Source: Candidatus Woesearchaeota archaeon (GTDB taxonomy: Archaea; Nanobdellota; Nanobdellia; Woesearchaeales; GCA-2686295). From it: a stretch of DNA of 64,000 bases. The stretch covers positions 31,191 to 95,190 of the forward strand of contig CALDOJ010000036.1 in the NCBI GenBank assembly GCA_937912225.1, written 5' to 3'. The first letter of the stretch is position 1. The number at the start of each line of letters is the position of its first letter. The position numbers were made by a program, and so were the translations under genes. A model generated the notes under the pieces. That model was not told the DNA's origin, did no database searches, and saw nothing but the letters and a program-made list of their open reading frames with translations. Below are positions 29,216-56,765 of the stretch, piece after piece.

Positions 29216-29736
29216 AGCATACGATTATACAATTGTTCTTTTACTTTTTTTATTTCTTGTTTTCCAGTATGAATACTATTAGTAAATAATCCTAAAACCA
29301 TGCCAAGACTAAAACCTGCACCAATAATCATGCTTGAAGCGTGATAAATTTCACCAAACATTTCTTCAAACCTATAACCAGAAAAAGCAACTGCTGCAAC
29401 CCCGAATATGGTTGTCGCCATTAAACCATTACCAATGGGTTCAGGCATTTTCCAAATAGGACCTGTTTGAAAATAACCAAATTCATCTTGAACATTTCTT
29501 AAATTAGAAATCTGAGAATTATATTCGTTCCTTTTCTTTTTATTAAACCACAAAGAATAATTAAAATTTGTTTCAATTTCATCAAAAACACCATCTATTA
29601 TTTGTTTATCTGCAGGATCTTTTTCTGTACGATTATAATTATAAGTATTGATTAAATTTTGGACAGCCGATTCTAAATCAGGAAAGAAACTTTTCTCGTA
29701 TTTTTTTTGTTTACTCACGAAACTGCTCCCAAACAC
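29212..29736 (-). CDS. Hypothetical membrane protein
   Basis: 174 aa. C-terminal half has two hydrophobic helices (GLMATTIFGVAAVAFSGY…SSMIIGAGFSLGMVLGLF). Convergent with adk, overlapping it by 4 nt. Confidence 0.45.
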   Translation of the reverse strand: MFGSSFVSKQKKYEKSFFPDLESAVQNLINTYNYNRTEKDPADKQIIDGVFDEIETNFNYSLWFNKKKRNEYNSQISNLRNVQDEFGYFQTGPIWKMPEPIGNGLMATTIFGVAAVAFSGYRFEEMFGEIYHASSMIIGAGFSLGMVLGLFTNSIHTGKQEIKKVKEQLYNRML

Positions 29737-29768
29737 CTCTTATGGATTAATTTCAGATTTATTATTAT

Positions 29769-53574: not shown

Positions 53575-55053
53575 GTGATAATAGTGGCCAAAAAAAGAAT
53601 TAAGAAGACTACCCAAAAGACTTCTAAAAAATCATTAAAAGTTCCAAAACCTAAAAAAAGTTATACATGGATGATGCCTGTTTTAGGTGTAATAATAATC
53701 GCAGCAGTTTTATTTTTCAACAGAGGACACTTTGATGAAAAAGTAATAACTGGAGAAGGAAAAATTGTTGGTTATTTGAACAACAACGCAATATATCAAT
53801 CAGAAGTTCAAGCACAGTTTGAATTACTTCCACCAGAATTAAGTGGTTTAATGGATGAGAAAACTTTGTTAAGTCAAATGATTGATGAAAAAATCTTACT
53901 ATCTAAATCTGAAGAACTTGGATTAACTGCTAGCTCAGAAGAAGTTGAAGCTGAAATTAATAATATCTTAGCTCAAAACGGATTAACTGCTGAGCAATTA
54001 GATCAAAACTTACAAGCTCAAGGAGTTTCATTAAAAATATTAAAAGAAATGTTTGGAAAACAAATCTCAATTAATAAATTATTAACTCAAGAAGCATTTT
54101 CAAGAATTAAAATTAGTGAAGCAGACCTTCAAATGTTCTACGCTGCAAATCTTGACCAGTTTCAAACTGGAGAACAAGTTAAAGCAAGACATATTCTAGT
54201 TCAATATGGTGATATGAGCGAAGAAGAAACTTTATTGGCTATGAATGCGATTGAAAAATTATTAACAGAAGATGATTCAAACTTTTGTGAATTAGTAACT
54301 GAATATTCTGAAGATCCTGGAAGTATTTCTACATGCGGAGAATACACTTTCCCTAGAGGAATGATGGTCAAAGAATTTGAAGAAGCAGCATTTACTCAGG
54401 AAGTTGGTGAAAAAACAGTTGTTAAGACTCAATTTGGATATCATTTAGTTCAAACTTTAGAAAAACTTTCTGCAGAAACAGTTCCATTAGAAGCTGCTTC
54501 AGAACAAATAAGAGAAATCTTAGTAGTTCAAGAACAACAAACTGTTTTCGCATTATATGTTGAAGAATTAAAAGCAGAAAATGAAATCGTAAACTGTTAT
54601 GCAACTCCTGAAGTAGACTTGTGTATTGAAGAAGAAACTCAAGTTGAAGACTTGGATGAAGTTGAAGAAGAAGTAGAAGAAGATGAAACTATTGTTAATG
54701 AAATCGAGTTAGAAGATGAAACTATTGAAGTTGAAACAACTATTGAAATTTCAGGAGAAACAAAAACAGATTCAACTATGGATTTATTTGCCAAATGTTT
54801 AACTGAGAAAAATACTAAATTATACGGAACTTTCTGGAGTAGTCAAAGCACAACTCAGAAAGAAATGTTTGGAGATTCACTTCAATATTTAAATTATGTC
54901 GAATGTTCAATCGAAGGTAATACTAGAGATCAAACTGATACTTGTAGAGATGCAAATATTTCCGGTTATCCTACTTGGGAGATTAATGGTAGAAAATATC
55001 CAGGACCTCAAACATTAGAAAAAATTGCTCAATTAAGTGGATGCACGCTATAA
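53575..55053 (+). CDS. Membrane-anchored parvulin-type peptidyl-prolyl isomerase (SurA/PrsA-like) with C-terminal thioredoxin-like SxxS domain
   Basis: GTG start. Basic N-tail plus TM (WMMPVLGVIIIAAVLFF). SurA-like chaperone region. PpiC domain (VKARHILVQ…GEYTFPRGMMVKEFEEAAF…FGYHLV). Acidic linker. C-terminal …YGTFWSSQSTTQKE…GYPTWEINGRKY resembles a thioredoxin fold with CxxC replaced by SxxS. Confidence 0.7.
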   Translation: MIIVAKKRIKKTTQKTSKKSLKVPKPKKSYTWMMPVLGVIIIAAVLFFNRGHFDEKVITGEGKIVGYLNNNAIYQSEVQAQFELLPPELSGLMDEKTLLSQMIDEKILLSKSEELGLTASSEEVEAEINNILAQNGLTAEQLDQNLQAQGVSLKILKEMFGKQISINKLLTQEAFSRIKISEADLQMFYAANLDQFQTGEQVKARHILVQYGDMSEEETLLAMNAIEKLLTEDDSNFCELVTEYSEDPGSISTCGEYTFPRGMMVKEFEEAAFTQEVGEKTVVKTQFGYHLVQTLEKLSAETVPLEAASEQIREILVVQEQQTVFALYVEELKAENEIVNCYATPEVDLCIEEETQVEDLDEVEEEVEEDETIVNEIELEDETIEVETTIEISGETKTDSTMDLFAKCLTEKNTKLYGTFWSSQSTTQKEMFGDSLQYLNYVECSIEGNTRDQTDTCRDANISGYPTWEINGRKYPGPQTLEKIAQLSGCTL

Positions 55054-55089
55054 GCGATATGTTTATAAAGTATATAACATTCACAATAG

Positions 55090-55260
55090 TTACTTTATGT
55101 GAAATGGTCCTTTTTTGAGGGAAGCATTATGCTTTGCTATGAGATCAAGACACTCTTACATAAACCAGCCCGACACAGAGAGTAACTTAACGGAGCACGA
55201 CATTAGTCAAGCAATGAGTTTGAGCGTTGGTGCCTCGGGCAACATAACTTTTCAAGTTAT
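55090..55260 (+). ncRNA. Candidate structured small RNA in a GC-enriched island (identity unknown)
   Basis: A 430-bp ORF-free gap. A TTTATAAAGTATATAAC TATA-like element at ~55068-55085 is followed by a ~50% GC segment (…CCAGCCCGACACAGAGAGTAACTTAACGGAGCACGAC…GAGCGTTGGTGCCTCGGGCAAC…). GCCCGA/TCGGGC and AAGCATTATGCTT palindromes, and a terminal hairpin CATAACTT-TTC-AAGTTATG at ~55230-55250. Strand and extent are uncertain. Confidence 0.3.
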
Positions 55261-55514
55261 GAAAAAAAACAATAATGTTCATTAATCATAGAACAAGTTC
55301 ACTATCATTCATTTATCACACAGTACCAAAGTATTTTGAATAGTAAAAAACTTGTTCTAAGAAAAAGTATAACTTATCATAATTATTTCATTTAAAATTA
55401 GTAAATAATCAGAGATTACCAATAGAGATAACAAAGACGATAAAACAACAAAAAGTTGTACTTTTTCTAAAAAAAAGCTTAGTGAATTATAAATTTAAAA
55501 GGAGGTCATTAAAA

Positions 55515-56765
55515 ATGGCAAAAATAGCACAAGTTGCAGCAAAATATATTGTTCATGCAAACATAAATATAGAAGGAGTCGTAGATAAACCAGATGTAAT
55601 AGGCGCAATCTTCGGACAAACAGAAGGATTATTAGGAGCTGATTTAGAATTAAGAGAGCTTCAAAGATCAGGAAGAATTGGTAGAATTGAAGTAAACGTT
55701 GAAACTAAAGGCGGTAAAACAACAGGAGAAATAATAATTCCTAGTTCATTAGACAAAGCTGAAACAGCAATTGTTGGAGCAGCTTTAGAAATTATTCAAA
55801 GAATTGGTCCTTGTAACGCAAAGATCAAAGTTGAAGGCATTGAAGATATTAGAATTTCAAAGAGACAATTCGTTATCGAGAGAGCAAAAGAACTTTTAAA
55901 AAACTTAATGGATGGAGTATTACCAGATTCACAAGAATTAGCTGATGAAGTAGCTTATTCAGTAAGAATTATGGAAATACAAGAATATGGTAAAGAAAGA
56001 TTACCTGCAGGACCAGGCATTGAAGATAGCGAAGAAATAATTCTTGTTGAAGGAAGAGCAGATGTTTTAACTCTTTTAAAACACGGTTTTAAAAACGCGA
56101 TTGCTATGAACGGAACAAGTGTTCCACAAACAATTATAGAACTTTGTAAAACAAAAGAAATAACTGTTTTCGTTGATGGAGATAGAGGGGGAGATCTTAT
56201 TATAAAAGAACTTTTCAACGTAGCGGAAGTTGACTTTGTTACAAAAGCTCCTGACGGAAAAGAAGTAGAAGAATTAACACAAAAAGAAATCCATAAAGCT
56301 TTAAGAAGTAAAGTTGCAGCAGAACAAGCTAAACTAGAAACAAAAGTAGCTCCTTCTCAAACTAGAGAAAAACCTGCACCTGCAAAACCATTTGAAAGAC
56401 GAAATGAAAAATTTTCAAGACCAGTTGCAAGAACTGAAGAAAGTAAACCCGCAGCTAAAGTTGAGAAGAAAAAACTTTCTTCTAAAGAAAAAGAGTCTTT
56501 TAATGGAATGTTAGAAGACCTTATTGGAACAAGAGGCGCTTATGTTTTAGATGAGAGTCTTAATATTTTAGGAAAAGTTCCTGTTTCAGAACTTCAAAGT
56601 ACAATTAGAAGTTTAAGATCTGGAATTTATGCCGTTATCTTAGATGGAACAATTGAAAAAGACCTTGTAAGCATTGCTGAAAGAGCAAATGTTAATATTT
56701 TAGTAGCAATGGATTGCAAAGTTAAATCTACAAGAGTTCAAATATTTACAGGCGACGACTTGTAA
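55515..56765 (+). CDS. dnaG: Archaeal DnaG-type primase (Toprim)
   Basis: Toprim motifs IILVEGRADVLTLLKHGFKNAIAMNGTS…VFVDGDRGGDLI. Conserved archaeal DnaG N-terminus AKIAQVAAKYIVHANI. The ATG at 55515 is preceded by GGAGGT (the ORF track's 55482 start is less likely). T-rich tract after the stop. Confidence 0.88.
   Translation: MAKIAQVAAKYIVHANINIEGVVDKPDVIGAIFGQTEGLLGADLELRELQRSGRIGRIEVNVETKGGKTTGEIIIPSSLDKAETAIVGAALEIIQRIGPCNAKIKVEGIEDIRISKRQFVIERAKELLKNLMDGVLPDSQELADEVAYSVRIMEIQEYGKERLPAGPGIEDSEEIILVEGRADVLTLLKHGFKNAIAMNGTSVPQTIIELCKTKEITVFVDGDRGGDLIIKELFNVAEVDFVTKAPDGKEVEELTQKEIHKALRSKVAAEQAKLETKVAPSQTREKPAPAKPFERRNEKFSRPVARTEESKPAAKVEKKKLSSKEKESFNGMLEDLIGTRGAYVLDESLNILGKVPVSELQSTIRSLRSGIYAVILDGTIEKDLVSIAERANVNILVAMDCKVKSTRVQIFTGDDL

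Follow-up and report, generated by a model that had tools for sequence, protein, structure and literature searches.

The single box H/ACA small RNA (sRNA) of Nanoarchaeum equitans, 159 nucleotides (nt) long, was found by RNA sequencing (Randau 2012, PMC3491384). It is a homologue of the element described here, which lies upstream of dnaG in a 64,000-nt stretch of DNA from a Candidatus Woesearchaeota archaeon (GenBank assembly GCA_937912225.1, contig CALDOJ010000036.1, positions 31,191 to 95,190). The whole 64-kb stretch is called the window, all positions are window positions, and the sRNA is discussed on the + strand. The N. equitans molecule is a discrete 159-nt RNA encoded between tyrS (NEQ389) and NEQ392, with a read coverage of 10,900 (PMC3491384 and its supplement). 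Its two kink-turn (K-turn) hairpins are parted only by an ACA, and its gene has its own box A promoter and a T-stretch (PMC3491384). N. equitans encodes a COG0130 pseudouridine synthase, NEQ454, and belongs to the same phylum-level lineage as the window (DPANN/Nanoarchaeota). A literature search for H/ACA RNAs, Cbf5, Nop10 and Gar1 in DPANN archaea and Woesearchaeota returned only the N. equitans paper.

In archaeal H/ACA RNAs an ANA box directly follows stem P1, the distance from box to target uridine is 15 ± 1 nt, and a distal G:A pair lies 9–10 levels above the base of stem P2 (PMC7075261). Stem-loop 2 of Haloferax volcanii sR-h45 guides Psi1940 and Psi1942, which correspond to E. coli positions 1915 and 1917 (Blaby 2011; Majumder 2020, PMC7075261). 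A 'UVUN' configuration is required for this stem-loop to make both helix 69 pseudouridines in sequence, and its atypical mode needs the ACA box, which is 17 and 19 nt from the two uridines (PMC7075261). Like the element described here, sR-h45 is a double-hairpin H/ACA RNA whose K-turn has two sheared G:A pairs; its 3′ hairpin also pairs with both flanks of helix 69 (leaving UAUG unpaired, as against UAUA here), and its ACA box is at the same distances from the target uridines. The two RNAs differ in that sR-h45 has a 56-nt inter-hairpin spacer and an AUAGCUA H box, and its 5′ hairpin targets U2605 (E. coli U2586, helices 90/93), whereas hairpin 1 (H1) here matches the A loop at U2555. Haloferax helix 69 reads ACCCUC, so the sR-h45 guide differs, and there is no detectable sequence homology beyond what the shared target imposes.

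The Pyrococcus and Archaeoglobus RNAs Pab40, Pf7 and Afu4 (Muller 2008, PMC2377435) share the same archaeal motif, with a K-turn or K-loop and an ACA after each hairpin, and the H/ACA targets in these genera concentrate in domains IV and V of 23S rRNA. They have approximately seven H/ACA sRNAs with many targets and unrelated sequences, whereas a single one was found here, at dnaG loci.

In eukaryotes, the same sites are served by snR191/U19 (helix 69) and snR10 (A loop, yeast Psi2923). These guides act on the same rRNA loops with the same two-hairpin H/ACA architecture; however, each of the two uridines in helix 69 has a hairpin of its own that acts in the canonical 'UN' mode, Nhp2 replaces L7Ae, there is no K-turn, and an ANANNA H box is required. 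PMC7075261 also mentions snR191/U19.

The evidence presented below makes it very probable that positions 55095–55247 (+ strand) of the window are the gene of a double-hairpin box H/ACA guide sRNA of ~155 nt, with its own TATA promoter and with pockets aimed at 23S rRNA. This is a known kind of RNA, homologous to the N. equitans sRNA and previously unannotated in this archaeal group. In the terms of the initial annotation, which had proposed a structured RNA of no assignable family and had set an ordinary identity as its counter-case, the RNA is indeed something ordinary, although absent from Rfam.

Conservation, covariation and anatomy of the element

A protein search with DnaG, keeping one genome per species, yielded 80 dnaG loci, almost all labelled Woesearchaeota or Nanoarchaeota, with DnaG identities to the window of 62–78%. 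An element of ~150 nt was detected upstream of dnaG in 76 of these 80 loci, in one orientation, by blastn and by nhmmer iterated three times (55099–55247 in the window). A covariance model (R1), built on the structure of 38 sequences, matched 79 of 81 sources, once each and on the + strand; the window match spans 55095–55253 (123.9 bits, E = 1e-29). Because an intergenic element has been kept despite this divergence of the DnaG protein, strong purifying selection is indicated. Many metagenome-assembled genomes titled 'uncultured Methanosarcinales archaeon' (L006, L010, L013, L016, L017, L019, L022, L024 and others) carry a Woesearchaeota-type dnaG locus together with the sRNA, and the taxonomic labels of these bins look wrong.

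The fold was assessed on two alignments. In the first (A1; MAFFT, 38 full-length sequences), RNAalifold gave both lower stems, with numerous compensatory changes, and the upper and apical stems were added by hand. Standard pairs occupy 86.8% of its paired cells, as compared to 32–43% when the 3′ partners are slid by 1–3 columns, and compensatory changes occur at 30 of 43 pairs. In the second (A2; the realigned set of the 79 hits of model R1), 90.0% of cells are paired versus 33–43% in slid controls, with 34 of 43 pairs compensatory. None of 500 shuffles reached any of these measures in either alignment. G·U and U·G pairs are frequent, and one upper-stem pair is UG in 35 sequences, CG in 30 and UA in 8. 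Since such pairs would be A·C mismatches on the other strand, they fix the + strand together with the promoter. Folding of the single sequence against shuffles gave modest scores that are uninformative on strand (z = −2.2 for + and −2.1 for −). What decides the case is the conservation and covariation seen among relatives, not the folding of one sequence. The most conserved positions in the family are the K-turn strands, the loop strands and the ACA box.

A TATA box precedes the element in every full-length locus. It reads TTTATAAA at 55063–55070 in the window, ~25 nt before the conserved 5′ end, and TTTATAAA, TTTTTAAA or TTTAAATA elsewhere, 25–35 nt upstream of the conserved end and often after an A-rich transcription factor B recognition element. 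In four loci that have hairpin 2 (H2) only (L012, L015, L018 and L022), the TATA box is directly upstream of H2. The parts of the gene are as follows.

55062–55070, + strand: archaeal promoter TATA box of the sRNA gene, gTTTATAAA; same box at the same distance in all full-length relatives
55095–55247, + strand: whole double-hairpin box H/ACA sRNA (H1, hinge, H2, ACA and short tail); covariance model match, nhmmer 55099–55247
55095–55102, + strand: H1 lower stem, 5′ strand TTATGTGA, pairing with TTACATAA at 55156–55163; 8 of 8 pairs compensatory, 94–95% of cells paired
55103–55109, + strand: H1 pocket, 5′ strand (PS1), AATGGTC; nearly invariant across loci
55110–55116, + strand: H1 upper stem, 5′ strand, pairing with 55143–55149; seven levels, 75% of cells paired, 5–7 pairs compensatory
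55117–55142, + strand: H1 K-turn and apical hairpin; conserved GA and NNUGA strands, covariation
55150–55155, + strand: H1 pocket, 3′ strand (PS2), ACACTC; ACACUC in 25 loci, plus close variants
55156–55167, + strand: H1 lower stem, 3′ strand (55156–55163), and hinge ACCA (55164–55167); the hinge is at the H1 ACA-type box position
55168–55176, + strand: H2 lower stem, 5′ strand, GCCCGA plus CAC, pairing with 55235–55240 and 55230–55232; 98–99% of cells paired
55177–55185, + strand: H2 pocket, 5′ strand, A-GAGAGT-AA; GAGAGU core conserved
55186–55224, + strand: H2 upper stem (55186–55191 with 55219–55224), K-turn and apical hairpin; 6-level stem, upper and apical stems covary
55225–55229, + strand: H2 pocket, 3′ strand, CGTTG (consensus AGUUA); GUU invariant, last position A or G
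55242–55244, + strand: H2 ACA box, 1 nt past the lower stem; ACA in 62 of 78 distinct sequences, NCA in 75 of 78
55243–55261, + strand: post-ACA hairpin CATAACTT-TTC-AAGTTATG; specific to this genome, not conserved

The 5′ pocket strand of H1, counted with the preceding A of the top lower-stem pair, is AAAUGGUC in the window and AAUGGGUC in the consensus. The H1 K-turn consists of G55117 A55118, followed by the C-stem, on its 5′ strand, and of C55137, a UAU bulge (55138–55140) and G55141 A55142 on its 3′ strand. Among the 49 H1 copies that bear a K-turn, GA is present in 44 and NNUGA in 42, the seven exceptions being UGGGA (twice), GACGA, AAUG, UGCAA and two unlisted variants. The apical stem-loop, AAGCA-UUA-UGCUU, varies in sequence and covaries at 8 of 8 pairs. 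In H2, the 5′ strand of the K-turn is g55192 G55193 A55194, then G55195 C55196; the 3′ strand is G55211 C55212, an AAU bulge (55213–55215), then G55216 A55217 g55218, and the apical hairpin, GAC-AUUA-GUC, has 3 bp. The strands (G/C)GA and NAUGA(G/A) are found in nearly all loci. The sixth pair of the H2 lower stem occurs as UA, AU, GU, CG, UG and GC, a double change converts CAC/GUG to UAC/GUA, and CC at 55233–55234 forms a 2-nt bulge on the 3′ strand. The pocket strand GAGAGUA is present in 54 of 79 loci, the rest being length or sequence variants, and its core is kept in N. equitans.

Both hairpins have the lower stem–pocket–upper stem layout of archaeal H/ACA RNAs. Their K-turns are of the GA...GA type with a 3-nt bulge. 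Counted on A1 from where the upper stem begins, H1 and H2 alike have their distal G:A pair at level 9. From upper stem to box there are 15 nt in H1 (6 + 8 + 1, following the n+15 rule) and 17 nt in H2. An ANA box follows H2, and follows H1 in part of the family: the last three hinge nucleotides of K-turn-bearing H1 copies are ACA in 23, UCA in 15 and CCA, as in the window, in 8.

A profile nhmmer search with the element matched the published N. equitans sRNA at E = 1e-11 across the hinge, H2 and the ACA box, and the window RNA is thus a homologue of an experimentally observed H/ACA sRNA. The H2 strands CACGAGAGU and GUUAGUG are common to both, the N. equitans hairpin reading CAGCCCGxCACGAGAGU...GUUAGUG..CGGGCAACA, and the pocket strands are the same except for one nucleotide adjoining the upper stem on each. 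The two RNAs also agree in size, in having two K-turn hairpins, a hinge cut to (N)ACA, a 3′ ACA and their own box A promoter. They differ in genomic context (tyrS versus dnaG), in the T-stretch terminator of the N. equitans gene, which is not enriched after the element here, and in the H1 pocket (AGAGGUGUA/CCCACCG versus AAUGGGUC/ACACUC).

Several structural claims of the initial annotation, made from the single sequence, can be placed on this fold. The TATA-like element it had noticed is the promoter box above. The complementary arms GCCCGA...TCGGGC (55168–55173 and 55235–55240) are the covarying lower stem of H2, and its stem AAGCATTATGCTT (55122–55134) is the apical hairpin of H1. The terminal hairpin CATAACTT-TTC-AAGTTATG exists, but it overlaps the ACA box and its sequence is not conserved in relatives; it may be a weak terminator. 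The structured non-coding RNA that had been proposed is borne out by a covariation-backed + strand fold, obtained by the comparison with the syntenic ppiC–dnaG spacer of relatives that had been suggested as a check: the core is conserved and the fold covaries. The Rfam scan, also suggested, was run. Rfam 15 gave no match at gathering score over the whole window and only noise at E ≤ 10 over 54950–55560 (HIV_FE, tsr31, caiA and mir-96), and ARAGORN found no tRNA or tmRNA at the element, in line with the statement that it is not tRNA-like, resembles 5S rRNA or RNase P CR-V weakly at most and has no assignable family.

In three relatives, hairpin-forming insertions of 27–61 nt are found in the H2 apical loop above the K-turn (L052, 3615–3830; L004, 3631–3841; L002, 1888–2071). 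These insertions, and the reduction of H1 described below, fall where an H/ACA ribonucleoprotein should tolerate them.

Predicted targets in 23S rRNA

Targets were sought by the rule 5′-[complement of 3′ pocket strand]-U-N-[complement of 5′ pocket strand]-3′, which for H2 predicts UAACU..UACUCUC. The two pocket strands of a guide are expected to make at least 8 bp in total with the rRNA, around an unpaired U. Helix 69 of the bacterial type (AACGGUCC) was rejected at first as an H2 target, until N. equitans sequence snippets corrected the archaeal sequence, and a scan of E. coli rRNA with H2 gave only a weak, non-conserved match at 23S U589. Nothing convincing was found in E. coli rRNA because bacterial helix 69 differs. 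The snippets are the 23S targets of two N. equitans C/D guides, 'GGGAGmTAACTGTA' (2003) and 'CTGTmAACTCTCTTA' (2010) (PMC3491384 supplement), from which N. equitans helix 69 was rebuilt as GUAACUGUAACUCUCUUA, that is, GGGAG-UAAC-U-G-U-A-ACUCUC-UUA. In E. coli numbering, the 3′ pocket strand of H2, GUU(A/G), pairs with U1911–C1914, and the 5′ strand, GAGAGU, is the Watson-Crick complement of ACUCUC at A1919–C1924. U1915, R1916, U1917 and A1918 are left unpaired. U1915 is 17 nt and U1917 19 nt from the ACA box, the same values as in sR-h45 stem-loop 2.

Metagenomes were scanned with TAACTNTAACTCTCTTAAGG; 80 loci were fetched (L082–L161), of which 79 are in a 23S helix 69 context, and the helix 69 pattern GUAACUAUAACUCUCUUAAGG occurs in at least 120 metagenome stretches. 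Twelve loci were checked with Rfam; the 11 of them in a helix 69 context are all archaeal 23S rRNA, and several loci have complete 16S-23S operons. An unbiased target scan of one complete 16S+23S operon (L129), allowing 2–4 unpaired target residues, placed the best H2 site in helix 69, with 5+6 = 11 Watson-Crick pairs; 2 of 400 shuffled guides reached this score anywhere. The window's own H2 pocket (C-GUUG / GAGAGU-AA) makes 4+6 pairs and leaves UAUA unpaired. The guide position facing U1911 is A or G, which is consistent with pairing, while the position adjoining the upper stem is free. The rRNA contigs were themselves retrieved by means of the predicted helix 69 target, so that finding them lends H2 no independent support. 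Both the N. equitans snippets and the A-loop result described below are free of this circularity. The covariance model found no sRNA on the rRNA contigs and no rRNA was found in the 80 dnaG loci, so guide and target were not placed in one genome, and we infer that the target sequences are present in this organism's own 23S rRNA.

The N. equitans H2 pocket, GAGAGU / GUUA, is the exact complement of the flanks of that organism's own helix 69, with UGUA unpaired, and the published target assignment of the N. equitans sRNA probably needs revising. The helix 69 assignment for the window and N. equitans RNAs is new and computational only.

Two side observations concern the rRNA contigs. In helix 69 of the GUAACUAUAACUCUCUUAAGG type the 3′ strand is eukaryote-like and position 1918 is A, as in bacteria; Haloferax has ACCCUC and bacteria have AACGGUCC. 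Group I introns (RF00028, 78–88 bits) are found inside archaeal 23S genes at L084 (8537–8833) and L103 (12970–13349). In both, the 23S gene breaks off right past helix 69, and approximately twenty other 23S contigs end likewise (...CTCTTAAGGT|), which suggests further introns.

For H1, the best site of the consensus pocket is the A loop (helix 92), GGGUGU-[UC]-ACCCAUU, in all three rRNAs tried. In E. coli numbering, the paired segments are 2549–2554 and 2557 onwards, with U2555 and C2556 unpaired. In this pairing the consensus PS1 faces ACCCAUU (3′ side of the A loop) and PS2, ACACUC, faces GGGUGU (5′ side). The 6+7 pairs conform to the canonical 'UN' mode at a spacing of 15 nt, and a single one of 400 shuffled guides scored as well. 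The A-loop variants ACCCGUU and ACUUAUU, found among the rRNA contigs, have matching guide variants, ACGGGUC and AUGAGUC. The A loop is the probable target of H1, and the pseudouridine is predicted to lie at E. coli U2555 or at its neighbour U2554, although this assignment is less secure than that of H2. The site of sR-h45 stem-loop 1 (E. coli U2586) was rejected for H1, as only 4 bp form.

In the proposed mechanism, each hairpin would assemble with L7Ae on its K-turn and with Cbf5-Nop10-Gar1, the PUA domain of Cbf5 sitting on the lower stem and ACA box. In 23S rRNA the pocket would base-pair to either side of a uridine, and this uridine would be isomerised to pseudouridine by Cbf5. H2 would pair with UAAC(U) and ACUCUC around the helix 69 loop and leave U-A-U-A (U1915, A1916, U1917 and A1918) unpaired; because these residues are unpaired as with sR-h45 stem-loop 2, H2 would make both universally conserved helix 69 pseudouridines one after the other, in the 'UVUN' mode. 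Consensus H1 would pair with GGGUGU and ACCCAUU around the U-C of the A loop.

Points against a guide function and alternative explanations

A number of observations weigh against the interpretation of the element as a two-pocket guide RNA. In 30 of 79 loci H1 is a simple hairpin that lacks K-turn and pocket, and in about half of the genomes, including the window (CCA), UCA or CCA takes the place of ANA as its box. The window's own H1 pocket is one G short of the consensus and makes 6+3 pairs with the consensus A loop unless one C is bulged, and N. equitans H1 fits the A-loop region only loosely, which weakens the A-loop assignment. The H1 pocket strands are also complementary to each other and would fit a closed, non-guiding stem (GGGU/ACUC in Woesearchaeota, GGUG/CACC in N. 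equitans). This arrangement was dropped after the rRNA scan; in both lineages a self-complementary pocket is to be expected if the target, helix 92, is itself a hairpin. For N. equitans, RNAsnoop had predicted other targets: 16S U234, 23S U614 and 16S U796 (PMC3491384). The rRNAs used here are metagenome contigs and the N. equitans snippets, not rRNA of the window genome, and the contigs are tied weakly to the lineage, their flanking genes being 54–66% identical to those of locus L065. Genes for Cbf5, Nop10, Gar1 and L7Ae were not found in the 64-kb window or the locus flanks, a small part of any genome, by regular expressions and tblastn. To our knowledge, Cbf5 and L7Ae are near-universal in Archaea. 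Finally, transcription of the sRNA is deduced from its promoter and the N. equitans homologue, and we infer protein binding and pseudouridine formation.

Two alternatives retain a slight probability. According to the first, the element is a cis-acting 5′ leader of dnaG, whose K-turns bind L7Ae or another protein to regulate dnaG, with no guide function in trans. Strict synteny with dnaG across the 79 sources would be expected of such a leader, as would the lack of enrichment of an oligo-T terminator after the element, and conserved + strand hairpins follow, 4–11 nt away at the closest, so that a shared dnaG transcript is possible. Co-transcription, however, is compatible with an H/ACA RNA processed from a precursor, and the N. 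equitans homologue, encoded away from dnaG, has a promoter and T-stretch of its own and accumulates as a discrete RNA of 159 nt. The leader hypothesis also leaves unexplained the ACA boxes, the n+15/17 spacing, the level-9 K-turns, and the fact that helix 69 and the A loop are the best-scoring sites for the two pockets. We consider it highly unlikely.

Just as improbable is that the element is an H/ACA-like RNA that no longer guides modification, or does so through H2 only, and serves as an rRNA folding chaperone or is an orphan. According to reviews, some archaeal H/ACA sRNAs have no identifiable target and could act as chaperones (PMC3608112), and the degenerate or missing H1 of many genomes, with a box that is often not ANA, would agree with such a loss. 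Yet nowhere is the RNA more conserved than in its pocket nucleotides, both pockets are near-perfect bipartite complements of known modification hot spots, and the geometry of H2 matches an experimentally active one.

The prospect that the element is a fragment or reduced form of another K-turn RNA (RNase P RNA, signal recognition particle RNA, 5S rRNA or a C/D box sRNA) is close to nil. Archaeal RNase P RNA and C/D sRNAs do carry K-turns, and the initial annotation had found the element weakly similar to 5S rRNA and RNase P CR-V. No Rfam family matched, even at E ≤ 10. The two hairpins of the covarying fold are independent of each other, and a P4-type pseudoknot is lacking; the K-turns are internal to long hairpins, neither end of the RNA has a C (RUGAUGA) or D (CUGA) box, and the element has a homologue among described H/ACA sRNAs.

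A small protein such as the 56-amino-acid (aa) TTG-started open reading frame (ORF) at 55115–55285, to which we assign a negligible chance, is refuted by the substitution pattern: a stop-free frame does cross ~160 nt in many relatives, but variability is flat over the codon positions (0.22/0.25/0.23, versus 0.10/0.05/0.49 for dnaG in the same genomes), substitutions are pairwise compensatory, the frame of the window ORF is closed by a stop within 40 codons in 33 of 37 relatives, the alignment contains 1–2-nt indels, and the ORF has no Pfam hit.

The dnaG leader, the surrounding locus and implications

The sRNA gene is located in the gap between ppiC, which encodes a PpiC-type peptidyl-prolyl isomerase with SurA-like N-terminal domains (53575–55053), and the genes for archaeal DnaG (Toprim) and a RIO kinase. 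The mechanically called dnaG ORF begins at GTG 55482; the true start is ATG 55515. DnaG alignments of relatives begin at approximately residue 11 of the GTG-started ORF, and the ATG 55515 start, giving a 416-aa product, was called on at least 22 aquatic-metagenome contigs. Because dnaG starts at ATG 55515, the gap is 461 nt long (55054–55514), not 428. It ranks second among 48 gaps in a window that is 90% coding, with a median intergenic gap of 38 nt, and the 56-aa TTG ORF is the only ORF in it. The long ORF-free spacer among tightly packed genes that had first drawn attention to the locus is thus real, as is the background G+C content given for it as ~30% (29.5% over the window). The G+C-rich island is real as well, but the ~50% assigned to its core was slightly generous: 100-nt windows across 55100–55250 give 43–47%, and an 80-nt scan peaks at 52% over 55117–55257, a value exceeded only at a tRNA gene. 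Elsewhere in the window, the minus strand of the largest apparent gap (29216–29768) can be read by eye as an ORF of ~175 aa that starts with GTG and is hydrophobic in its C-terminal half; this is probably a protein gene missed by an ATG-only ORF call, rather than an RNA.

Between the ACA box and dnaG are two adjacent long hairpins (z = −2.9) and the dnaG translation start:

55289–55359, + strand: leader hairpin A, an inverted repeat with closing stem AGAACAAGTT/AACTTGTTCT; UCAY motifs (UCAC/UCAU) after the 5′ arm
55360–55468, + strand: leader hairpin B, an inverted repeat with closing stem AGAAAAAGTA/TACTTTTTCT
55499–55517, + strand: dnaG Shine-Dalgarno sequence aaggaggt (55499–55506) and start codon ATG (55515–55517); relatives' alignment, metagenome gene calls

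Neither leader hairpin has an Rfam match. Of 77 loci, 54–57 have the stem that closes hairpin A, AGAACAAG(N)/(N)CUUGUUCU, and AGAACAAG occurs in 11 copies versus 4.3 expected. The 5′ arm of this stem shows 17 A-to-G changes and its 3′ arm 3 T-to-C changes, and the double change AGAAUAAG/CUUAUUCU was seen three times. G·U pairs are far commoner than A·C (18 versus 5), and hairpin A is therefore placed on + strand RNA. Relatives also have arms like those of hairpin B, (C)ATAAGAAG.../...CTTCTTATG.

In many relatives (L045, L023, L070, L017, L072, L062, L019, L066, L036 and others), though not in the window, hairpin B contains a Shine-Dalgarno-like AAGGAG, an ATG and an ORF of 14–25 codons. These ORFs start MFIT.., MIIT.. 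or MVIT.., only the first few codons, which overlap the UCAY motif, being conserved, and the 5′ Shine-Dalgarno region pairs with a downstream CUUCUU arm. They could be upstream ORFs or attenuators, or a coincidence.

In several genomes 4–11 nt separate the sRNA tail from the start of hairpin A. Runs of T are not over-represented downstream of the ACA box: T4 falls within 30 nt of it in 23 of 79 loci, as compared to a background of 22%. Because hairpin A is so close and oligo-T is not enriched, the sRNA may be co-transcribed with the dnaG leader and trimmed to the ACA. A more specific proposal is that the sRNA is the 5′ part of the dnaG transcript, freed by processing or trimmed to the Cbf5-protected ACA, with the hairpins AGAACAAG/CUUGUUCU and AAGAAG/CUUCUU as an undescribed processing or regulatory element. 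Strict synteny, the lack of an enriched terminator, the distance of 4–11 nt to hairpin A and the + strand assignment are all compatible with this proposal, which we regard as tentative and rather unlikely. If it is true, the output of the only rRNA pseudouridylation guide would be coupled to the expression of DnaG, a primase and exosome subunit.

These results indicate that an order-level group of DPANN archaea very probably has a conserved H/ACA guide RNA without a match in Rfam 15, and the 79-sequence alignment and its covariance model could seed an Rfam family. If the N. equitans target is revised as proposed, the 'UVUN' mode at helix 69, so far shown in Haloferax only, would extend to a distant lineage. 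These reduced genomes appear to keep one guide RNA, and its two predicted sites, helix 69 and the A loop, are the rRNA loops in contact with tRNA. A single guide of this kind supports the view that RNA-guided modification has its indispensable core in the pseudouridines at these two sites.

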